From a virus (taxonomy: Duplodnaviria > Heunggongvirae > Uroviricota > Caudoviricetes): DNA of 10,401 nucleotides. Position 1 is the stretch's first letter. The number at the start of each line of letters is the position of its first letter. The stretch lies in the IMG/VR virus record IMGVR_UViG_2671180770_000023; one strand, written 5' to 3'. The notes below the pieces were generated by a model that was not told where the DNA came from, did not search any database, and worked only from the letters and a program-made list of their open reading frames with translations. Below are positions 217 to 10,401 of this stretch, one piece after another. Made by a program: the position numbers and the translations under genes.

Positions 217-430
217 CGGGTCCTTCCTGGAATTATGGCCCGTTACGGGGCGGCGACCTCGCGGTTTTTATCTGTTTATGAAAATTTTTCTGGAAAAAGC
301 ATGTCGGTACTTCTCGAACATAACTATTTGTTTTTAAATAGATACACAATAAAAAGAAACGACACGGTAATCATCTAAAATGGCGATTTATGACGCTTTC
401 ATGTCGTTTCTCAGTTTTGTTCAATAATTG
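217..430 (+). other. Lambda-type cos site, copy A (cosQ-like 217-230, cosN 248-259, cosB-like 260-430)
   Basis: Contains GGGCGGCGACCT followed by CGCGGTTTTT...GTTTATGAAAATTTTTCTGG, which matches my recollection of the lambda left end. The cosB-like part has inverted 8-mers AAACGACA (357-364) and TGTCGTTT (392-399) resembling Nu1 R sites. Upstream CGGGTCCTTCCTGG resembles cosQ. Confidence 0.7.
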
Positions 431-1089: not shown

Positions 1090-1158
1090 AGCTCATAAAT
1101 AGCGAAAAACCGCGAGGTCGCCGCCCCGTAACGGGTCCATATGCCGGAAAGGACCCGT
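1090..1158 (-). other. Lambda-type cos site, copy B, inverted (cosN on minus strand = 1126-1115; cosQ-like 1158-1144; cosB-equivalent is divergent)
   Basis: Reverse complement of 1105-1135 is identical over 31 bp to 239-269. The cosQ-like ACGGGTCCTTTCCGG lies outward. Sequence between cosN and the terS start has no R-site-like 8-mers and carries a GGT/G-rich run instead. Confidence 0.65.
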
Positions 1159-1182
1159 AAAAAAAAGCCGGATTTCTCCGGC
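1159..1182 (-). terminator. Rho-independent terminator after the capsid operon
   Basis: On the minus strand: GCCGGA-gaaa-TCCGGC hairpin (1182-1167) followed by T8 (1166-1159), 7 nt past the stop of the 137-aa ORF. Confidence 0.6.
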
Positions 1183-1188
1183 CTTGTC

Positions 1189-1602
1189 TCAGATGGTTTT
1201 CAGTATGCGATCGATGTCGCCGTCATCGCCCTGGTTTCTGCCATCGTATGCCATGCCAGCTGATACGGCTTGCGGGCTGTGCATGTCCATAAAGTTTTCA
1301 AAGGCTGCGGTAAGCTCTGGTGCAACCTTCTGGCGTTCCTGCTCTATGGTCATGCTAAGGATGCTTTTAGCCGTACCAACATCGATACAAGGCACGTTTG
1401 CCATTGCACGCAACAGCGGCTGATAGTCTTTATGCTCATGAAGCGCCATAATCGCATCAGCGCGCGGCTTGTCCTGCTCTTCCAGTTTGTTTAGTTGATA
1501 TACGGCCTCATAGGTTGATAAACCTCTGTCAGCCATTGCCCGCGCTTCGGCTTTAAATTTACTCGCCAGCGGTAGCGTCATGATGCTTTCATTCGTTGCC
1601 AT
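1189..1602 (-). CDS. Hypothetical head-module protein (137 aa), acidic C-terminus
   Basis: Tightly packed after the gpD-like gene. GGGGGA SD 3-4 nt upstream of ATG at 1602. No family recognised; any packaging or connector role is inferred from position only. Confidence 0.6.
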   Translation of the reverse strand: MATNESIMTLPLASKFKAEARAMADRGLSTYEAVYQLNKLEEQDKPRADAIMALHEHKDYQPLLRAMANVPCIDVGTAKSILSMTIEQERQKVAPELTAAFENFMDMHSPQAVSAGMAYDGRNQGDDGDIDRILKTI

Positions 1603-1614
1603 CGTTCCCCCTGC

Positions 1615-1950
1615 TTATCGGGCCAGCGGCTGAACGGATACGCCGGAACCCGCAAAGGCGGCGCATTTTTTCGCATCGGTGTCGACGCTCTCAGGCCAGT
1701 TAACGGCGGCAATATTGAATATCCCCGTCTTGTAACACTGTGCTGATTTCTGCTTTGACGTGTCCACAGGGTACGAGGTCAGATAAACAGCCTTGCCAGA
1801 TTCCTTACCATCCCACGGCTTAAACTCGCCATTGTCCGCCAGCATCAGCGGGGTAAATTCCTGAATAAAGCCAGCATCAGCGGCAAAATGTACCAGCGTC
1901 GTGGCGACCTGCTGACTGCCTGCAAATAACTCAATGTATGGAGTGTCCAT
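1615..1950 (-). CDS. Head decoration protein, lambda gpD family (111 aa)
   Basis: TPLMLADNGEFKPWDG...YKTGIFNIAAVNWPESVDTDAKKCAAFAGSGVSV aligns with recalled gpD (TPLMLDTSSRKLVAWDG...[35 protein letters not shown]). GGGGGA SD upstream. Confidence 0.8.
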   Translation of the reverse strand: MDTPYIELFAGSQQVATTLVHFAADAGFIQEFTPLMLADNGEFKPWDGKESGKAVYLTSYPVDTSKQKSAQCYKTGIFNIAAVNWPESVDTDAKKCAAFAGSGVSVQPLAR

Positions 1951-1961
1951 AGAATCCCCCG

Positions 1962-3017
1962 TTAACCAATTTTGACGGTAACAAATTTGCGAATATCTGC
2001 CGGTACCGGCTGCGGTGCACTGTGTGTCTGCACGTACTCAATCGCCGGATCTCCGTCCTCAATCCAGTTTTTCGGGTAGTACATGTTTTGCGTTGCCCCC
2101 GTTCTTACTGCGTCCTGATCCATAATCGCACCATAGGCCACCAGCCCTTTATTGTTGGTGTTGCCCAGGACAAGCAAATCAGGCTCAAGGAAATATTTTT
2201 CTCTGCCGTCACTGTCGGCGTATTTGCCGGAATAGACGATAAGGGCAATATCGCCCAGATAGCCTTTAAAGCTCACCACTTCGCCCAGGTTTTTACATGC
2301 CAGCTCTGCGGCGGACTCTGAACCACGGGAAAGATCGTACAGCTCACGGAATTTTTTAAAGCTGCGTAACGTTCGCCATACCTCAGCGCCCATAATCATG
2401 ACGTTGGCGGGGCAACCTGCCTGATCGGCGTATAGTTCGATATCATAGATTGGATCGTGGATTTCTTTGTCCTGCTCTGACCATTTTTTACCGTCGGCCT
2501 GCTCTATGATGTTTTTTTCCGGTATCTTCCAGTCGATTTCATAGCGCTCTATGCCTTCGCCCTCAATGATGTTTTTTCCGGTCGTTACCGCATTTACCGC
2601 CAGCCATTCCACGCGCGCTTTTATGGCGTTTATCTGGCGGCGCATATTGCCAGTAATCAGGCGCATACGGCGATAGGTAGGGTCGTTAAGCTGTGCCGGA
2701 TCTTCTCCAGCCATGCGCATGATGGTTTTCGTTGGATCGATTTCGTGCTTTGGCTTCATGTAGCCAGGTTTGATTGTGCTGGTTTCGTACCCTTTATCGC
2801 GCTGAACCTGGCTACCCACCATAGGCGAACAAAACGCCGACATGGTGACTTCTTCAATGTCCAGGGTATCCAGCATGATGTTTTGCGTGCTGAATGTCGC
2901 CACGTTCGGGAAAAACAGCGTGGTAAACAGCGGACTGAATTTAAATTCCGCAATATCCCCGCGATTCAGGTACGCAAAAAGCTGGTTAGTGTTAAGTGCC
3001 ATTGCTTTTACTGTCAT
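1962..3017 (-). CDS. Major capsid protein, lambda gpE family (351 aa)
   Basis: FKFSPLF..LFFP...TSTIKPGYMKPKHEIDP...DPTYRRMRL...YPKNW...GDPA matches recalled gpE (FKFDPLF..LFF...TSEFTPGYVKPKHEVNP...DPAYRRRRI...YPKNW...GDPA). ATG at 3017 lies 4 nt after a G10 run on the coding strand. Confidence 0.85.
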   Translation of the reverse strand: MTVKAMALNTNQLFAYLNRGDIAEFKFSPLFTTLFFPNVATFSTQNIMLDTLDIEEVTMSAFCSPMVGSQVQRDKGYETSTIKPGYMKPKHEIDPTKTIMRMAGEDPAQLNDPTYRRMRLITGNMRRQINAIKARVEWLAVNAVTTGKNIIEGEGIERYEIDWKIPEKNIIEQADGKKWSEQDKEIHDPIYDIELYADQAGCPANVMIMGAEVWRTLRSFKKFRELYDLSRGSESAAELACKNLGEVVSFKGYLGDIALIVYSGKYADSDGREKYFLEPDLLVLGNTNNKGLVAYGAIMDQDAVRTGATQNMYYPKNWIEDGDPAIEYVQTHSAPQPVPADIRKFVTVKIG

Positions 3018-3226
3018 TATTCCCCCCCCCCGTGAACCTGATTCATACCCAGCGCCGCGCGTAAATAGGCGCGTACCTGCCAGCCTGTTGACGGCTCAAC
3101 CATCGCCAGCGGGTCAAGTCCTGCCGCAATGCCTGCTTTTACGTTCTGCTGGTGGCGTTCCTTGAGCGCCTTCACGATGTCGGGGCTTATGTACACCGAA
3201 ACACCGCCTTTTTTCTCTTCAGCCAT
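3017..3226 (-). CDS. Hypothetical protein (69 aa) ending ...VHGGGE, encoded through the G10 tract
   Basis: ATG at 3226 with AGAGGA SD about 10 nt upstream. Its stop TAA (3019-3017) shares one base with the capsid ATG. No family recognised. Confidence 0.5.
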   Translation of the reverse strand: MAEEKKGGVSVYISPDIVKALKERHQQNVKAGIAAGLDPLAMVEPSTGWQVRAYLRAALGMNQVHGGGE

Positions 3227-3282
3227 AGTAAGAAATTCCTCTTTGACTTAAAAAATCATAACTGGATGTTCATCCAGTCCTG

Positions 3283-3310
3283 ATTATAATCAGGATTGCA
3301 TTTTGCGCAA
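3283..3310 (-). promoter_or_regulatory. Candidate sigma70 promoter for the 69-aa/capsid/decoration operon, embedded in palindromes
   Basis: Minus-strand TATAAT (forward 3288-3283) with TTGCGC 16 nt upstream (forward 3310-3305). The -10 sits at the centre of an 18-bp perfect palindrome TCCTGATTATAATCAGGA (3278-3295). A second palindrome ACTGGATG-tt-CATCCAGT (3261-3278) lies in the leader. Confidence 0.5.
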
Positions 3311-3385
3311 TGAAATTGAGTTACGTTGCAAATTATGAAATGATTTACGGCAACAGTAGTCACCATGCTGTTAACCTCGTAAGCA

Positions 3386-3427
3386 AAAGCCCGATAAGCT
3401 TCCTCCTGTACTTATCGGGCTTTTTTT
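3386..3427 (+). terminator. Strong hairpin with T7 tract (plus-strand terminator; weaker in minus orientation)
   Basis: GCCCGATAAG (3389-3398) pairs with CTTATCGGGC (3411-3420), loop 12 nt, then T7 (3421-3427). In the minus direction the hairpin is followed by UUUUGCUU. Confidence 0.5.
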
Positions 3428-3433
3428 GGATAC

Positions 3434-3455
3434 AAAAAGCCGGATTTTCTCCGGC
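3434..3455 (-). terminator. Rho-independent terminator after ssb
   Basis: On the minus strand: GCCGGA-gaaaa-TCCGGC hairpin (3455-3439) followed by TTTTT (3438-3434), 8 nt past the ssb stop. Near-identical to the 1159-1182 terminator. Confidence 0.55.
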
Positions 3456-3463
3456 CTGTGCGT

Positions 3464-3874
3464 TCAGAACGGAATATCATCACCGTAGGGGTCATCGTCT
3501 CCCGCTGGTGGCTGATTACCCTGTGTGCCTGTGGTTTTGCGTCTGTTCCCGCCAGGACGTGCCGCACGGGCACTGATTACGCTGTCTGCAATAACCTGAT
3601 AACCCTGCCGCGTTTCCCCGTTCTGTCCGGTCCACTGGCTGACCTGCATCGTGCCGGATACGCTGGCAACGTCGCCTTTTTGATGTTTAGCCAGGAAGTC
3701 GGCCTGCTTACCAAATGCGATGACCGATAGCCATAACGTCGCCTGCCCATCCTGCGCCTGACTACATGGCAACGATACCGCCATACGCGCCAGCGTCATT
3801 GGTGTGCCCTTGCTGGTCTGTTTTACCTGCGGGTCGTCCACTAGCCGCCCGTAAGCGGCTATCTGTGCTGTCAT
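3464..3874 (-). CDS. ssb: Single-stranded DNA-binding protein (136 aa)
   Basis: OB-fold-like N-terminus, Gly/Pro/Gln-rich linker and the canonical acidic tail ...DDDPYGDDIPF. Start ATG overlaps the upstream stop as ATGA (3871-3874). Confidence 0.85.
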   Translation of the reverse strand: MTAQIAAYGRLVDDPQVKQTSKGTPMTLARMAVSLPCSQAQDGQATLWLSVIAFGKQADFLAKHQKGDVASVSGTMQVSQWTGQNGETRQGYQVIADSVISARAARPGGNRRKTTGTQGNQPPAGDDDPYGDDIPF

Positions 3875-4149
3875 GATTCCACCTCTCCGGTTTTAACGTT
3901 GATGGTTGTTACCTGTTCCGCTTCGGCAATCTCCCGCTCTGTCAGCGTGGCAAAATTTGCCGCCGTCGTGGTCATGAATGCGCTTATCAGTTCGGGATGT
4001 GCTTTCGCGTATCCTTCCCCCGCGTGGCGGTCTATCGTTCTGATTGCCACCTTTAAAGCGTGCTCTGTCATGTCTAACGCGCGATATTTCGGTTCTGTTC
4101 TGTCTCTGCGTTTTTTGAGTGATGTATTAAATTTCCCTGAAGTGTGCAT
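3871..4149 (-). CDS. Hypothetical protein (92 aa)
   Basis: ORF immediately downstream of the iteron cluster. GAGGGGG SD about 11 nt upstream of ATG at 4149. Translationally coupled to ssb. No family recognised. Confidence 0.45.
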   Translation of the reverse strand: MHTSGKFNTSLKKRRDRTEPKYRALDMTEHALKVAIRTIDRHAGEGYAKAHPELISAFMTTTAANFATLTEREIAEAEQVTTINVKTGEVES

Positions 4150-4198
4150 ATTTATTTTTACCCCCTCGTTTAAAAAGTTTTGAGTTGTGCCTCCCCTT

Positions 4199-4344
4199 GT
4201 CTACCTTATCTACCTTAGTGGCCCTCATACCAGTAATGGCGCGGCTTTCAGCGGGGTAGAGTGCTTTTATCCAGTATCTACCCCGTGTCTACCTCCCTGT
4301 CTGATTCAGGTAAAATCAGGTAGAGAGGGTAGATAGTGGGTAGA
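4199..4344. repeat. Iteron cluster, putative replication origin
   Basis: Eight copies of a 6-bp core: TCTACC at 4200, 4209, 4277, 4288 and its complement GGTAGA at 4255, 4319, 4328, 4339. Adjacent copies are 9-11 bp apart. AT-rich flanks at 4141-4185 and 4345-4370. Lies directly 3' of the primase gene. Confidence 0.65.
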
Positions 4345-4360
4345 CAGCAATTACAAAAAA

Positions 4361-4855
4361 TTATAAAAACGCGTCGCACTCGTCTGTTGTTATTGCGTTA
4401 GTCTGCGTTACCCCCTTAACTTTCCGCGTAATATATTCATGTCCGTAAACTTTTGCGGCAGGCTTCATAGCCTTGCCAAAGTCATTTACGTTTAGCGGTT
4501 TGCTCCTGCCTGCGTATGCCATAAACGCCAGATAGACGCGGTAAAGGCTGTTCCTGGTCGTGTACTTCACTGAATCGCCACCGCCGCCCATCATCAGGCC
4601 GCGTGCTTCCTCCAGAAAATTCAGGAACTGGCAAAACTCAATAACCGGATCCGTCTGTTGCTTTATTGCCAGAGCTTCATCACCGTCACGCTGTTCCAGT
4701 AGTAAAGCCCGTGCCTTCTCAGGGTCGGTAAAGTTCGCCAGCAATCGGCGGATAATGACAGGGATTTCAGCCGCGATCTTTTCCGGTAGCTCCCTGTCTT
4801 TTTCGGCCTCACTGACGATATTGTCGAAACGGAAAATCACGCGACGACGTGCCAC
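4361..4855 (-). CDS. P4-family primase/helicase, C-terminal segment, out of frame with the upstream segment (164 aa)
   Basis: Begins at a GTG. Sequence (A)RRRVIFRFDNIV...DPVIEFCQFL continues the conserved post-NTPase region expected after ...GVW in this family. Overlaps the upstream ORF by 19 nt in a different frame. Confidence 0.7.
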   Translation of the reverse strand: MARRRVIFRFDNIVSEAEKDRELPEKIAAEIPVIIRRLLANFTDPEKARALLLEQRDGDEALAIKQQTDPVIEFCQFLNFLEEARGLMMGGGGDSVKYTTRNSLYRVYLAFMAYAGRSKPLNVNDFGKAMKPAAKVYGHEYITRKVKGVTQTNAITTDECDAFL

Positions 4856-6108
4856 ACCCCGGCCCGTTCGGTGAATATCATCGGGTTATTGTTGGTCGCC
4901 AGCACCACCGCCCTGATTACAGCCGTGAAACGCTTTTCGTATTTCGGGTTAATTTCCACGGGGTCACCGCCCGTGATTTTCTTGATGCCCGTTCCTTCGC
5001 CTGTATATTTCGGCTGGTCAGCCAGGACGATAAGACGACTCCCGACAACCTGCGCACGTCCACCAGCATCATCAAGCGATGTCATTTCAGCGCTTACCGT
5101 GTTCTGTTTCCCTGCCAGAAGGCTGGCTATGTGCGTGAATGTACTTTTACCGCTCCCGCCGTCTCCGGTGGCCTCAATAAACATCTGCCAGTCGTACCGG
5201 TTCGCCATAATCATGTACAGCGCGGCACATATACGCATCATCTTGCGCGGGTCTTTTCCGGCTGCGTGCTTAAGCCATTTATGAAAGTTTGGCGCGTTAT
5301 CGCGGATGTTCTCCCCTGGTGCTGGTGGCGTGTACTCAATGCCGTTGTGCGTGGTGATCCAGTTCTCCGGCGTGTGCGGGGAAAATTCCCCCGTTTTCAG
5401 GTCAAGCGCACCATTGGCGAACGGCAGCAAATCGCCGGACGGCTCGCCCATTGGTTCGGCAATAACTTTTAACGCTTCCACGGCGTTATTGATTACGCGC
5501 TTGCTGAAAGTGGCCCTGTGCTCTGAATAGATCGCCACCATTTCGCGGCTAAGTTCCATTGTGCTGACCGGACACCATACCCCGCCGCGCCATACGTGAA
5601 CGATTTCACTTTCCTGATGCACACAAACGCCATCAAAGCGCTCGGCAAGCAGCTGCGCGCGCTCACTGTCTGCCATTTGTGCCAGTTGCGTATTTTTCTG
5701 CTCCGGCATGGTAAGCCCTGCGGCAATATTTTCACGCTCAGCATTCAGATAGCGCCGCCAGTTTTCACACTTCTGGACGTGCATTCCTTCGTGGTAAAAA
5801 TTTGCGTCCTGAATATCTGCCGCCGCCAGCTTCTGACCAATCTTTTTGGTCTCCACCAAATCCAGTTCTCCGGCCTGGTACAGCCTTACGCGTTTTTTTC
5901 CATCCGGAACAATTTTCAGTGCATCAAGTTCGGCAAGCTGATTTGGCCCAAGCCACACAGGCGGCACATTATCGCCGGATGCGGGGCCGTCCTGCTCCTG
6001 CCACTGTTTTGCATGTGCCCACGCATCACTACCCGCGAAAATAATTACCTCTGTGTCTTTGTGTTTTATTCCGCGTGGTTGTTTTTTTACGTTCGGTGCC
6101 AGTTTCAT
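4837..6108 (-). CDS. P4-family (D5-like) primase/helicase, N-terminal domain plus P-loop NTPase segment (423 aa)
   Basis: Walker A GDGGSGKST, Walker B-like RLIVLAD and KKITGGDPVEINPKYEKRF motif typical of the phage/plasmid primase P4-family C-terminal domain. AGGGG SD 6 nt upstream. ATG overlaps the upstream stop as ATGA. Confidence 0.8.
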   Translation of the reverse strand: MKLAPNVKKQPRGIKHKDTEVIIFAGSDAWAHAKQWQEQDGPASGDNVPPVWLGPNQLAELDALKIVPDGKKRVRLYQAGELDLVETKKIGQKLAAADIQDANFYHEGMHVQKCENWRRYLNAERENIAAGLTMPEQKNTQLAQMADSERAQLLAERFDGVCVHQESEIVHVWRGGVWCPVSTMELSREMVAIYSEHRATFSKRVINNAVEALKVIAEPMGEPSGDLLPFANGALDLKTGEFSPHTPENWITTHNGIEYTPPAPGENIRDNAPNFHKWLKHAAGKDPRKMMRICAALYMIMANRYDWQMFIEATGDGGSGKSTFTHIASLLAGKQNTVSAEMTSLDDAGGRAQVVGSRLIVLADQPKYTGEGTGIKKITGGDPVEINPKYEKRFTAVIRAVVLATNNNPMIFTERAGVWHVVA

Positions 6109-7244: not shown

Positions 7245-7530
7245 GTGAAAGGCTCCTACAGTAATTTTAAGGAGTCTCGCTACTACGCTGCTAAACGGGG
7301 TGGCGAGACGTAACAGGGTTAGCAGACTGGCACTGTAGGAACCAGCGAGCGCAAAGGCTCCCCCGTTACGCCCCGCCATAATGCGGGTATGGGTAGGCTT
7401 ACGGACACAAAAAAACCGCATATCGGAATATAAGCGGCTGTCCGCTACAGTATTCAGGCTGCTAAACCCGGTCGCCATGTGGGCGACGGGGGAAGCATAC
7501 AGCCCCGTTATAATTTTTTGCAAGCGGTTT

Positions 7531-8456: not shown

Positions 8457-8663
8457 TTAAGCAGCCGTTCCGCGTGCTTCCTGTTCGCGTTCTTTCTGCC
8501 AGGCCAACACATCATCCTCATACCATCCGCGACGGCGTAAACCAACGCGAAAACCCTGCGGAAATTCTCCGGCGTTGATCATGCTTTGCAGCGTGCTGTC
8601 TGCCTTGCTGTGGATAATTTTTTTTACTTCCTGGCGAAAGATAATTTTTCTGATTGCTTCCAT
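8457..8663 (-). CDS. alpA: AlpA-family phage regulatory protein (68 aa)
   Basis: STLQSMINAGEFPQGFRVGLRRRGWYEDDVLAWQKER matches the AlpA / prophage CP4-57 regulator pattern (recalled AlpA: ATIYDWLNPKSPRYDATFPKKRMLGVKSVGWIEAEIDEWLSQR). AAGG 8 nt upstream of ATG at 8663. Confidence 0.8.
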   Translation of the reverse strand: MEAIRKIIFRQEVKKIIHSKADSTLQSMINAGEFPQGFRVGLRRRGWYEDDVLAWQKEREQEARGTAA

Positions 8664-9082: not shown

Positions 9083-9159
9083 GGCCTTGTCGTTAAATTT
9101 GATGCAATTATACGACGGTTTTACATGGTTTTCGTAGTTTTTACTGGTTTTCTGTACAG

Positions 9160-10401
9160 CTACACGGCTCGGATACCCCTTTTACCACTGGCGAGGGTTA
9201 CGCCCGTCGCCGCAGCCTCGACAAATTCGCCCCACCAGCGCATCAGCACGATGCGTTTTTCTATGTAGTTGCTCCGGTTGTATGCCCGTCTAACTTCGTT
9301 GGTGTCGACGTGGGCAAGTGCCGCCTCTATTACGTCCGGCTCGAATCCTTCCTCGTTCGCTGCTGTGCTGAATATGGCGCGTAATCCATGAGACACCAGC
9401 ACGCCAGCGAATCCCATACGCCGCAATGCTGCGTTAGCTGTCTGGCTGTTCATCGGCTGCTGTGGGTCTTTCAGACTTGGGAAAACGTAATTGCGGTGGT
9501 GGCTGATTGGTTTCATGGCCTCCAGCACCGCCATAGCCTGACCGGAAAGCGGGATAACGTGATCCCTGCGCATCTTCATGCGTCCGGCAGGTATCGTCCA
9601 TTGCTTCGCGTCCAGGTTGATTTCATCCCACCGCGTTGATGACGCTTCGGCGGGACGGGTTACGGTCAGTAACTGCCATTCAATCAGTAATCTGGTCTGC
9701 CGTTCTGTTGCCGATACTGATAAAGCCTGCATAAGCTCCGGCAGCTGTTCGGGGCGGATTGTTGGCATATGTTTTTTTACAGGTGAGGGAAACGCCTTAC
9801 GCACATTCATAGCCGGATTGGCATCAATCAGCCCACTGTTGGCGGCGTAATCCATTACCTCATTAACGCGCTGTAAAACCCGCTTGAGTGTTTCCAGGTT
9901 GCCGCGCTCCTTGATGGGGGTAAGCACTTCAACGAACCTTCGGGCGGTGAGGGTATCTATTGGCGTGTTGCCGATGAACGGGAATACATATTTATCCAGC
10001 GAACGCCAGATGTCTTTAATCGTGTTGGGGGCCAGATTCTGGCTGATTTTCACCTGGTACCATGCCGCCGCCACATTTTCGAACGTGTTCCCTTGTCTTC
10101 GGGCCTCTGTCTCTCTTTTTTGCCTCTCGTGGTCCTGCGGGTCAGTTCCGGCACTGATTAACGTCCTGTACTCGCTACGGCGTTTTCTGGCATCAGCCAG
10201 GGAAACATCTTCAAGCGATCCAAAACTCAGCAATATTCTTTTTTTGTCCGATGGTCGGTAGTAGGAAAATCTCCAGAGTTTTGATCCAGACGGTTTGACC
10301 AGGAGAAAAAGCCCTCCGCCGTCCTGCAGGGTGTACTCCTTTTGCGCTGGTCTGGCTGCTTTGATCTGCACTGTGGTTAATGGGTGTGTTTTTCTCGCCA
10401 T
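9160..10401 (-). CDS. int: Tyrosine recombinase, P4-type integrase (413 aa)
   Basis: N-terminal arm-binding-like region (GGGLFLLVKPSGSKLWRFSYY...) typical of P4-like integrases. Catalytic H-x-x-R (HGLRAIF) and C-terminal Tyr region (RAYNRSNYIEKR). ATG is the last three bases of the window. Confidence 0.9.
   Translation of the reverse strand: MARKTHPLTTVQIKAARPAQKEYTLQDGGGLFLLVKPSGSKLWRFSYYRPSDKKRILLSFGSLEDVSLADARKRRSEYRTLISAGTDPQDHERQKRETEARRQGNTFENVAAAWYQVKISQNLAPNTIKDIWRSLDKYVFPFIGNTPIDTLTARRFVEVLTPIKERGNLETLKRVLQRVNEVMDYAANSGLIDANPAMNVRKAFPSPVKKHMPTIRPEQLPELMQALSVSATERQTRLLIEWQLLTVTRPAEASSTRWDEINLDAKQWTIPAGRMKMRRDHVIPLSGQAMAVLEAMKPISHHRNYVFPSLKDPQQPMNSQTANAALRRMGFAGVLVSHGLRAIFSTAANEEGFEPDVIEAALAHVDTNEVRRAYNRSNYIEKRIVLMRWWGEFVEAAATGVTLASGKRGIRAV

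Follow-up and report, generated by a model that had tools for sequence, protein, structure and literature searches.

Island and capsid operon

The window, by which we mean the whole stretch of DNA analysed (10,401 nucleotides), is a phage-inducible chromosomal island (PICI) of the EcCICFT073 type, an E. coli phage satellite. Pfam matches identify an integrase, an AlpA-like regulator, a D5_N primase, an SSB, a Phage_cap_E capsid protein, an HDPD decoration protein and a Nu1-like protein, and lambda cosN is present as two exact 12-mer sites. The assignment follows from the fit of this gene content and of the two exact cosN sites to EcCICFT073 as published, with its integrase, alpA, pri-rep, gpE-like capsid and gpD-like decoration genes, Nu1-like Rpp and two cos sites. 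About a fifth of complete E. coli genomes (1058 of 5426) carry a relative of the island. Scans of genome contigs with the alignment of the first operon protein (69 aa) and with the capsid protein gave zero confirmed relatives, while scans of viral contigs with capsid queries returned almost exclusively the known E. coli contigs, L171 being the sole new one.

The capsid operon lies on the minus strand and includes the following features:

3236..3243, minus strand: Shine-Dalgarno sequence AAGAGGAA of the 69-aa gene, nearly invariant in all relatives (divergence 0.03)
3017..3226, minus strand: 69-aa gene, first of the operon (phrog_3255; start codon 3226..3224)
1962-3017, minus strand: lambda gpE-like capsid gene (Pfam Phage_cap_E, 8e-51)
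1615-1950, minus strand: gpD-like decoration gene (Pfam HDPD, 1e-16)
1189-1602, minus strand: 137-aa scaffold-like gene, last of the operon
1159-1184, minus strand: operon-end terminator, from sequence and fold

The remainder of the operon after the first gene (1189..3017, minus strand) gives a C-terminal match to phrog_53. Published work on these islands found no phenotype for the capsid and decoration genes and is silent on the control of their operon. It attributes island induction to helper-dependent expression of AlpA, with alpA induction depending on the helper and not on SOS. In the searchable literature on these islands LexA appears in reference lists only.

The region between ssb and the operon carries a dense set of signals:

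3437..3457, minus strand: T1, intrinsic terminator of the ssb transcription unit (terminator scan; -13.1 kcal/mol and U5)
3385..3431, no strand assigned: T2, 14-bp perfect hairpin (arms 3385-3398 and 3411-3424, 100% complementary)
3316..3344, plus strand: P_as, conserved divergent promoter (-35 TTGAGT at 3316-3321, 17-nt spacer, TGn at 3336-3338, -10 AATGAT at 3339-3344)
3296-3310 and 3326-3340, no strand assigned: O1 and O2, related 15-bp dyads 30 bp apart
3305..3310, minus strand: -35 of the capsid promoter P_cap, TTGCGC (TTG and three variable bases, 16 nt upstream of the -10 in 91/91 loci)
3283..3288, minus strand: -10 of P_cap, TATAAT (TATAAT in 87/91 loci, TAAAAT in 3/91, TATAAC in 1/91)
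3278..3295, no strand assigned: perfect 18-bp palindrome TCCTGATTATAATCAGGA, read directly from the sequence (conserved part, the 12-bp core 3281-3292)
3260..3279, no strand assigned: candidate LexA box AACTGGATGTTCATCCAGTC (core CTG-N10-CAG at 3262-3277, coinciding with the second inverted repeat)
3250..3285, minus strand: long hairpin and U run (arms 3285..3271 and 3268..3254; U run 3255..3250) with the shape of an intrinsic terminator

A well-supported promoter dedicated to the capsid operon

A sigma-70 promoter dedicated to the capsid operon, with a start predicted near G3275, is well supported by comparison of 91 related loci, which represent E. coli, Salmonella and Pluralibacter lineages and thereby three genera. 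The arrangement TTGnnn-16-TA[T/A]AA[T/C] precedes the 69-aa/capsid/decoration operon in every one of these loci, in agreement with the preliminary description, which had proposed such a promoter. The same geometry is found in Salmonella, in Pluralibacter and in the L063/L171 group although neighbouring bases change. A consensus scan missed P_cap because its -35 matches the consensus at only three of six positions; its spacer is 16 nt. An upstream alternative at CATAAT (3337..3332) was rejected, having no -35 and lying in sequence that is not conserved upstream. To look for a phage source of P_cap, 3227-3345 was compared by sensitive blastn (distant mode) with 50,697 phage records, and only chance-level matches came up.

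The preliminary description also placed two tandem terminators after ssb. T1 fits this description; T2 does not do so as a minus-strand terminator, its U run lying mainly on the plus strand (U7 at 3425-3431, against UUUUGC on the minus strand), and it is better described as bidirectional or plus-strand-directed. The sequence of the T2 hairpin differs in every lineage, but most lineages retain ahead of it a stretch of 7-8 A, which reads as U on the plus strand (AAAGAAAAA in Salmonella). The promoter is, as had been proposed, insulated from ssb by the terminators that lie between them, and these leave the operon in need of a promoter of its own. That packaging modules of such islands do have one can be concluded from EDL933, in which an unrelated cf-PICI occupies the same chromosomal site (phoQ/roxA) and a start was mapped by Cappable-seq between its accessory genes and capsid gene in 8 of 9 conditions (PMC10469882). 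The EDL933 packaging promoter is unrelated to P_cap, so these start sites are not applicable to P_cap itself.

The geometry of P_as is present in 87 of the 91 loci, with variation confined to weakly constrained hexamer positions; its RNA would be about 80 nt long and would end at T2. The dyads O1 and O2, which coincide in part with the P_cap -35 and the P_as -10, keep their 30-bp spacing in all four lineages. O1 exhibits no covariation, and the two may simply be the promoters' own elements. Likenesses to a Fur box and an IHF site in the upstream block, judged by eye, were weak and were set aside. At curated thresholds the intergenic region belongs to no Rfam family (AgvB, AgrB and ctRNA give 17-19 bits, far under the cut-offs).

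The TATAAT palindrome

Direct reading of the sequence places both inverted repeats of the preliminary description where it had them, the 18-bp palindrome at 3278-3295 and the second repeat at 3261-3278; they have T3278 in common, and a repeat search gives both as longer imperfect versions (I4 and I5). The minus-strand TATAAT (3288..3283) does lie in the palindrome, one base off the exact centre assigned to it, which reads TTATAA. As the sequence is palindromic, the plus strand also has TATAAT (3285-3290). At 18 bp this is the longest perfect palindrome of the window (the next reaches 12 bp), and first-order Markov shuffles of the window give one of at least 18 bp in 5% of trials. Taken alone it is only marginally significant, and its position on a -10 adds weight.

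Conservation is confined to the centre. The 12-bp core TGATTATAATCA has a pairwise divergence of 0.016, compared with 0.19 at third codon (synonymous) positions, whereas the outer three bases on each side, at 0.34 and 0.42, are the most variable positions of the region. Among 44 distinct sequences, pair 38-53 is unpaired in 34, and the bases at ±7 co-vary, being A..T in 19, C..G in 13 and mismatched in 12. Salmonella has lost the upstream arm (GTGGTT) and retains the TATAAT -10 despite this loss, and there is no second copy of the palindrome elsewhere in the island. The proposal that the 18-bp palindrome is the operator of the promoter is not borne out by these observations. It is, rather, a locally perfected form of a conserved, symmetric -10 region of 12-14 bp; the palindrome itself may act as a second operator or as a bidirectional -10. 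E. coli relatives show no variation in the TGAT that precedes the -10, a constancy that LexA does not explain. Compared by eye, without a weight matrix, the core TGAT-TATA-ATCA matches the FNR motif TTGAT-N4-ATCAA at 8 of 10 positions, with the outermost T..A replaced by C..G or A..T; the likeness is lost in Salmonella. The palindrome was rejected as a LexA box on its spacing (CTG-N8-CAG) and its absence from the low-HI sites (HI, heterology index).

Of the two proteins proposed to bind the palindrome, neither finds support. The RHH candidate, the 69-aa protein, has no Pfam family, a PDB sequence search gave no match to a DNA-binding protein, and its AlphaFold2 model (pLDDT 74) gave no significant fold match, RHH proteins included; since the model is a monomer at this pLDDT, the protein may still form a domain-swapped RHH dimer. 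Islands that have the same promoter carry strongly different AlpA alleles (44% identity over 27 aa), while one and the same allele adjoins the unrelated packaging promoter of EDL933. AlpA was also rejected because the alpA promoter has ACGGT-type repeats and neither the palindrome nor the TTGCA dyads.

A candidate LexA box in the second inverted repeat

The second repeat is a perfect 8+8 inverted repeat, ACTGGATG at 3261-3268 and CATCCAGT at 3271-3278 on either side of tt (3269-3270). Its core CTGGATGTTCATCCAG (3262-3277) has CTG-N10-CAG geometry and resembles the SOS boxes of ruvA and cho, TTCGCTGGATATCTATCCAGCATTT and TACACTGGATAGATAACCAGCATTC respectively (PMC3009722 Table 4). The HI of the candidate box is 8.57, within the 2.0-17.0 obtained for the 18 known E. 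coli boxes that served as reference, scored leave-one-out. No other site of the 10.4-kb window scores better, and 300,000 random positions included none that equalled it. CTGG-class boxes rank among the weaker SOS boxes.

Comparison of 88 upstream regions of relatives indicates that the box is kept in 85 (HI 6.4-10.2) and starts 3 nt past the -10 in 83; relative to the predicted start it covers roughly -4 to +16. The Salmonella box, CTGGATAAATATCCAG, has an HI of 8.8. Pluralibacter keeps the box sequence (HI 9.1) in a position 12 nt further downstream, and the L063/L064/L171 lineage keeps the promoter and has no LexA-like box (HI 24-30). A second LexA-like box is present in the int-alpA spacer of several island types. 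The second repeat is a better candidate for the operator than the TATAAT palindrome, with LexA as its predicted ligand. A perfect 8+8 repeat also suits an RNA hairpin, and part of the conservation could be structural.

A terminator-shaped hairpin over the box

The minus-strand hairpin begins in the last three nucleotides of the -10, has a stem of 14-15 bp and is flagged by the terminator scan; its U run comprises six U, two of them within the stem. The window version folds at -13.8 kcal/mol (minimum free energy) and that of the commonest relative at -17.7 kcal/mol; among relatives the hairpin is also the predicted optimal fold, with z-scores from -2.8 to -5.9. In the relatives 95.6% of cells are paired and three pairs (50-75, 52-73 and 53-72) change in a compensatory way; none of 500 shuffles reaches the count observed. 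The three pairs all belong to the lower stem, outside the 20-bp LexA box, and their changes were seen in four lineages or more. These changes and the G-U pairs of the stem fit the minus-strand RNA only. The hairpin and U run occur in all four lineages, despite a different sequence in the L063 group and a shifted position in Pluralibacter.

In the upper stem, no pair changes in a compensatory way among the E. coli sequences. The only variants of this stem (CCAG to ACAG in five loci, which takes HI from 7.3 to 6.4, and G to A beside the loop) break the RNA pair yet improve the LexA box or leave it unharmed. RNA from the predicted start G3275 forms only a 4-bp hairpin (-3.2 kcal/mol). Beginning inside the -10, the hairpin lies mostly upstream of the likely 5′ end and not in the leader, to which the preliminary description had assigned the second repeat. 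A long-range UGAUU/AGUCA helix in the predicted fold was dismissed as fortuitous, UGAUU being upstream of the predicted start.

A proposed mechanism and its alternatives

We propose that P_cap is an insulated, LexA-repressed and SOS-inducible capsid promoter, and give this reading, in which LexA binding, SOS induction and termination are all predictions, a probability of about 0.6. A LexA dimer on the box at 3262-3277 would block RNA polymerase at P_cap. DNA damage would remove LexA while inducing lambdoid helper prophages, so that capsid expression would be switched on together with the helper. Complementarity runs six base pairs past the box on each side, reaching the final three bases of the -10, and is followed by the U run; RNA coming in from ssb would then form the 14-15-bp terminator hairpin and stop, while those of P_cap would start inside the 5′ arm and escape termination. 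The promoter would in this way be insulated as well as repressed. Escape by a start inside the stem fails in Pluralibacter, in which the hairpin and its U6 lie entirely downstream of the predicted start and would attenuate P_cap's own transcripts. More tentative, and rather doubtful as a whole, is the fuller proposal that a single 45-bp stretch combines the -10, the LexA operator and a terminator whose stem consists of the LexA box and extends into the -10, that Gram-negative PICIs evolved LexA control of their capsid operon independently, and that, with the second LexA-like box in the int-alpA spacer, SOS is a direct input to E. coli PICIs alongside helper-dependent AlpA.

Several other readings deserve consideration. 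That the TATAAT palindrome is itself the operator, an island- or host-encoded dimeric regulator on the 12-18-bp dyad occluding the -10 with or without LexA, we regard as unlikely, even though the most conserved block of the region is its core, which includes a TGAT needed by neither the -10 nor the hairpin and reads, by inspection, TGA-N6-TCA, a pattern common to CRP/FNR-family sites. The covariation at ±7 leaves a 14-bp palindrome in 32 of the 44 distinct sequences, and no palindrome in the window is longer. However, the covariation possibly reflects a single linked event, the sites being 13 bp apart; the outer 3 bp of each side vary above synonymous sites and pair 38-53 is mostly unpaired; the L063 group has a central mismatch; Salmonella keeps the promoter minus the upstream arm; and the island holds a single copy. 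The candidate regulators fare no better, the 69-aa protein having no RHH or other DNA-binding signature and AlpA differing under the same promoter while one allele is found beside the unrelated EDL933 promoter. A somewhat lower probability is given to an element acting in RNA only, whether an insulating intrinsic terminator or a stem-loop at the 5′ end, with a U-rich enhancer, that lends stability to the capsid mRNA; the likeness to a LexA box would then be fortuitous. The scan-flagged hairpin and U run, their presence in four lineages with differing sequence or position, and long-stem changes and G-U pairs that make sense only in minus-strand RNA all speak for such an element. The upper stem does not behave accordingly: it has no compensatory change in the E. 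coli set, and its variants sacrifice pairing and spare or improve the LexA score. Moreover, it is the box sequence, and not its pairing alone, that is kept across three genera, its score is unmatched among the random positions, and the short hairpin from G3275 is too weak for a 5′ stabiliser.

Divergent transcription from the symmetric -10 (3283-3290), with a plus-strand RNA running from about 3297 to T2, is improbable. TATAAT is present on both strands, the predicted starts here would be about 21 bp apart, promoters with a shared -10 are common (PMC12825309), and in most lineages T2 has U7 on the plus strand compared with U4 on the minus. The shared -10, present in the window and in Pluralibacter, is however not conserved in Salmonella or the L063 group, whose plus-strand versions are TATAAA and ATTTTA/TTTAAT respectively, the latter having lost A2/T6, whereas every lineage preserves the -10 of the minus strand; CTGGAT makes a poor plus-strand -35, and the better conserved P_as (3316-3344) already accounts for T2. 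Least credible, and very improbable, is that there is no promoter at all, the conserved block being a structured leader and the capsid genes being fed by read-through or antitermination from the ssb/replication operon. The weak -35, the failure of the consensus scan to call a promoter and the resemblance of the hairpin and U run to the terminator in leaders under antitermination control, lambda PR'-tR' for instance, would agree with this. Against it stand three serial terminator-shaped hairpins between ssb and the operon, a -35/16-nt/-10 geometry conserved with hexamer-specific constraint, and a block that is unaltered when accessory genes, a cos-like insert or different replication modules are swapped in upstream; nor has the region any similarity to phage late-promoter regions.

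Comparison with known systems

In several respects a LexA-repressed P_cap would resemble operon I of the staphylococcal SaPIs, the packaging operon of these PICIs, which is given as LexA-controlled in papers citing Ubeda et al. 2007, Mol Microbiol 65:41 (PMC6092414 and PMC6739421). Both would be separate packaging/capsid-morphogenesis promoters of a PICI placed under host LexA and tied to prophage induction. They differ in the host, which is Gram-positive in the one case (Staphylococcus aureus) and has another LexA consensus, and in the genes controlled, terS, cpm and pti compared with the lambda gpE/gpD homologues of the E. coli island. There is no sequence homology with P_cap, so the resemblance would be convergent, and LexA control is demonstrated for operon I and predicted for P_cap.

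Among chromosomal boxes, those of ruvAB and cho/ydjQ share the CTG-N10-CAG geometry, with an HI of 8.6 here, 8.6 for ruvA and 8.0 for cho, and the ruvA box is identical save for the four central bases (CTGGAT....ATCCAG; PMC3009722 Table 4). In contrast to these, which adjoin repair genes of the chromosome, the island box is carried by a mobile element; it has a less AT-rich centre and is contained within a longer inverted repeat followed by a U run. LexA boxes that overlap the start site have been described (PMC8072944).

For P_cap the operator would likewise lie over the start site, directly past a strong -10, as in promoters of the colicin type. In colicin and other SOS promoters the LexA box is just downstream of the -10. 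Colicin promoters have two overlapping LexA boxes, whereas P_cap has a single candidate box.

The bidirectional promoters with a symmetric -10 (Warman et al. 2021; PMC12825309) are similar in carrying TATAAT on both strands and in occurring in horizontally acquired AT-rich DNA. The symmetry of P_cap differs in not being conserved in Salmonella or the L063 lineage; the predicted spacing of about 21 bp is not one of the 18, 10 or 23 bp described for divergent starts (PMC12825309), and there is no adjoining divergent gene. Lambda PR'-tR', the site of Q antitermination, also has a good -10 closely followed by a terminator-shaped hairpin upstream of head genes. In the E. coli relatives, unlike in lambda, the 5′ arm of the hairpin is upstream of the predicted start, so that the hairpin is not expected in transcripts of P_cap; neither similarity in sequence to late regions of phages nor a Q-binding or pause element was identified.

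Implications for satellite biology

With a helper-dependent alpA and capsid and decoration genes of no reported phenotype, the biological pay-off of SOS control is at present a prediction. If the three-signal reading is true, a single inverted repeat would serve both to halt read-through out of the replication module and to control initiation at the capsid promoter. If the box is functional, it would be a compact case of promoter, operator and terminator occupying the same bases, and lexA alleles together with box mutations would provide a simple handle on capsid and decoration genes that have so far been without phenotype. Host DNA damage would then directly license the expression of satellite capsid genes, a convergent parallel to the staphylococcal islands.

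Genetic context and relatives

The genes flanking the capsid-operon promoter region all lie on the minus strand.

Genes and spacer in the window
9160-10401, minus: integrase
8457-8663, minus: AlpA-like regulator
4837-6108, minus: D5_N/DUF5906 primase
3464-3874, minus: SSB
237 nt between the SSB gene and the 69-aa gene: spacer holding the elements studied here
3017-3226, minus: 69-aa gene
1962-3017, minus: lambda gpE-like capsid gene
1615-1950, minus: gpD-like decoration gene
1189-1602, minus: 137-aa gene
439-981, minus: Nu1-like gene (Rpp-like)

By sequence, this gene content, together with the lambda cosN 12-mer GGGCGGCGACCT present in two exact copies, at 1115-1126 (minus) and 248-259 (plus), both with lambda-like flanks, matches the published description of EcCICFT073. 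That island encodes homologues of the capsid (c1499) and decoration (c1500) proteins, has two cos sites and produces Rpp, which redirects packaging of helper-phage DNA to the island (PMC6092414, PMC6739421). The two copies are in inverted orientation, flank the Nu1-like gene on both sides and fit the reported cos1 and cos2. The 137-aa protein aligns with the last 70 residues of a head maturation protease family (phrog_53, 6e-9), and the sequence suggests a scaffold-like (lambda Nu3-like) member of the capsid operon. The primase/replication region (4361-6108, minus) carries a 423-aa ORF (D5_N and DUF5906) and a 164-aa ORF (Pox_D5) overlapping by 19 nt, whereas the primase of relatives is a single protein of ~605 aa; the split may be a frameshift, in which case the island is possibly defective or the sequence in error. 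An iteron-like cluster of GGTAGA(C/T)A and its complements (4150-4360, minus), just downstream of the primase gene, occupies the position expected for a PICI replication origin. A C4 antisense RNA (Rfam RF01695) is matched at 7296-7383 (minus) with 71.5 bits, above the gathering score of 45; Icd-like ORFs overlap one another here, in the interval from alpA to the replication genes.

Of 5426 complete E. coli genomes, 1058 carry a relative of 2950-3900. The 69-aa protein has relatives only in E. coli, Salmonella and Pluralibacter, and scans of a one-genome-per-species collection returned none. The islands diverge upstream of the conserved block, with perC-family or other small genes in some and a cos-like insert in others, and their replication proteins vary (RepA helicase, DUF927, primase). 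The insert (~170 bp, L005-L007, alignment columns 40-220) lies between T1 and T2, the two hairpins separating ssb from the promoter, and carries a cosN-like ACGGGGCGGGAGGCGCG, giving an extra cos-like site directly upstream of the capsid promoter block. The islands of EDL933 (L251, 1680500-1693500) and of O157 strain 180-PT54 (L252) occupy one attachment site, flanked by phoQ and roxA, and share an int/alpA/ssb/perC left arm; the packaging module at this site differs by strain, being either of the capsid-forming PICI type (HK97 capsid, portal, terminase) or of the gpE/gpD type, with the exchange boundary at the T1/T2 terminators. For comparison, 80 IMG/VR loci, seven RefSeq loci and the window were reduced to 56 distinct 150-nt upstream sequences, and Salmonella (L088), Pluralibacter (L090) and a divergent group (L063, L064, L171) served for deeper comparisons.

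A predicted dedicated promoter for the capsid operon

The minus-strand TATAAT lies at 3288..3283 and the best -35, TTGCGC (3310..3305, minus), matches the consensus at three of six positions with a 16-nt spacer. A consensus promoter scan of the window made no call here because such a -35 is under its threshold. The geometry is nevertheless invariant: TTG and three variable bases stand exactly 16 nt upstream of the -10 in 91/91 loci, and the -10 is TATAAT except for TAAAAT in three and TATAAC in one. Salmonella keeps it though the six bases preceding the -10 are GTGGTT rather than CCTGAT. In pairwise comparison the third codon positions of the 69-aa gene diverge by 0.19, the ribosome-binding region by 0.03 and the 12-bp core by 0.016. 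We infer from the sequence a sigma-70 promoter, P_cap, probably starting near G3275, as predicted from purine/pyrimidine context 8 nt past the -10. T1 (3457..3437, minus; -13.1 kcal/mol with U5) terminates the ssb unit, and the operon has its own terminator at 1159-1184, ahead of cos and the Nu1-like gene. The dedicated, insulated capsid-operon promoter proposed in the preliminary description is supported, by the geometry and by the terminators. The only usable start-site data, Cappable-seq of EDL933, concern a capsid-forming PICI (cf-PICI) with an unrelated packaging promoter; the start mapped there between the accessory genes and the capsid gene (8/9 conditions) bears on P_cap as analogy only.

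The palindrome and the second repeat

Both repeats previously read from the sequence are present: 3278-3295 (plus strand, TCCTGATTATAATCAGGA) is a perfect 18-bp palindrome, and 3261-3278 (ACTGGATG-tt-CATCCAGT) is an inverted repeat with perfect 8+8 arms, T3278 being common to the two. The -10, placed earlier at the exact centre of the palindrome, is one base off, and the symmetry creates a second TATAAT on the plus strand (3285-3290). The palindrome is the window's longest; at least 18 bp is reached in 5% of first-order Markov shuffles. Its conserved part is TGATTATAATCA only, and it extends to 18 bp through the outer three bases of each side, the region's most variable positions (divergence 0.34 and 0.42). 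Among 44 distinct sequences, the pair at alignment columns 38-53 is unpaired in 34. Pair 39-52 co-varies: it is A..T in 19 and C..G in 13, which makes a 14-bp palindrome in 32, and a mismatch in 12. Because its sites are only 13 bp apart, the covariation may reflect one linked event. The upstream arm is missing in Salmonella, the centre is mismatched in the L063 group, and no second copy was found in the island with up to two mismatches allowed. The AlpA proteins of the window and of an O157 island, which has the same promoter, show only 44% identity over 27 residues, and the O157 allele also accompanies the unrelated packaging promoter in EDL933. The preliminary description probably chose the wrong repeat as operator, and the wrong binding protein; the 12-14-bp core could possibly act as an operator, with its conservation as the argument.

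The second repeat, CTGGATGTTCATCCAG, has the CTG-N10-CAG geometry of a candidate LexA box. A published set of 18 LexA boxes that precede UV-induced E. coli genes, ruvA TTCGCTGGATATCTATCCAGCATTT and cho TACACTGGATAGATAACCAGCATTC among them (PMC3009722), was turned into a symmetrised count matrix, and sites were scored against it by the heterology index (HI) of Berg-von Hippel/Lewis. At 3260-3279 the 20-mer has an HI of 8.57 (known boxes, leave-one-out, 2.0-17.0; ruvA 8.6, lexA 8.1, cho 8.0); it is the top-scoring site of the window, and 0/300,000 Markov-random positions scored as well. Relatives' boxes have an HI of 6.4-10.2 in 85/88, starting 3 nt past the -10 in 83. The box is kept in Salmonella (CTGGATAAATATCCAG, HI 8.8) and in Pluralibacter (CTGGATGTTTGTCCAG, HI 9.1), where it sits 12 nt further downstream, its sequence thus being preserved even without preserved position. 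The candidate box covers about -4 to +16 relative to the predicted start; SOS genes under strong repression typically have theirs at such a position (PMC8072944). The L063 group has no LexA-like box (HI 24-30). Operon I of the staphylococcal SaPIs is reportedly under LexA control (a finding attributed to Ubeda, 2007) and provides a precedent for the P_cap candidate; in searchable E. coli PICI papers LexA appeared in reference lists only. Another LexA-like box, TACTGGTTTTCTGTACAGCT (9142-9161, HI 9.6), is situated at int's 3′ end and precedes an 83-aa ORF and alpA, and comparable boxes occur in the int-alpA spacers of the EDL933 cf-PICI (L251:1199, HI 8.2) and the O157 island (L252:15002, HI 8.2); published work reports alpA induction as SOS-independent.

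An extended hairpin

Complementarity runs six bp past the 20-bp box on each side.

3285..3271 and 3268..3254, minus: arms of the extended hairpin, then U3253-3250

Across the 44 distinct sequences 95.6% of hairpin cells are paired, and the compensatory count is matched by 0/500 shuffles. All three doubly changed pairs (50-75, 52-73, 53-72) are at the box edge or past it, two of them fully outside. No compensatory changes were found in the upper stem of the E. coli set, where variants (CCAG to ACAG, HI 7.3 to 6.4; G to A near the centre) all break the RNA pair yet better or spare the box. The G-U pairs are sensible solely for a minus-strand RNA. Minimum-free-energy folding gives this hairpin for most relatives (-15.5 to -24.9 kcal/mol, z-scores -2.8 to -5.9). 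In the window, the stem base has a competitor in the perfected palindrome. Incoming transcripts would fold the complete terminator, while one from ~3275 retains only a 4-bp hairpin (-3.2 kcal/mol) because the 5′ arm begins in the last three -10 bases, which fits an insulator evaded by P_cap's own transcripts. In Pluralibacter, however, the predicted start precedes the whole of the hairpin and its U6, which would attenuate transcripts from P_cap too.

A putative divergent promoter upstream

All lineages keep a stretch of about 75 bp preceding the -10, and within it lie two related dyads at a spacing of 30 bp. By sequence, both features are better explained by a divergent promoter, P_as.

TTGAGT 3316-3321, 17 nt, TGn, AATGAT 3339-3344, plus: P_as, conserved geometry

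This geometry occurs in 87/91 loci and four lineages, varying solely at weakly constrained hexamer positions. T2 differs in sequence in every lineage; most have 7-8 U after the hairpin on the plus strand and 3-4 on the minus (the Salmonella run is interrupted), and the window has U7 on the plus strand. P_as and T2 suggest an unannotated ~80-nt plus-strand RNA (about 3350-3431) heading away from the capsid operon; an Rfam search with it gave no family matches, AgvB scoring only 17.9 bits. Of the two tandem terminators described after ssb, T1 stands as the end of the ssb unit, and T2 probably serves the other strand.

Probable regulation of the capsid operon

From sequence, conservation and precedent, the most likely mechanism, to which we give a probability of about 0.6, is that LexA bound at the second repeat would repress P_cap and that the same repeat would form the core of a terminator against read-through. 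The element would then belong to a familiar class of regulatory sites, in a setting without earlier description.
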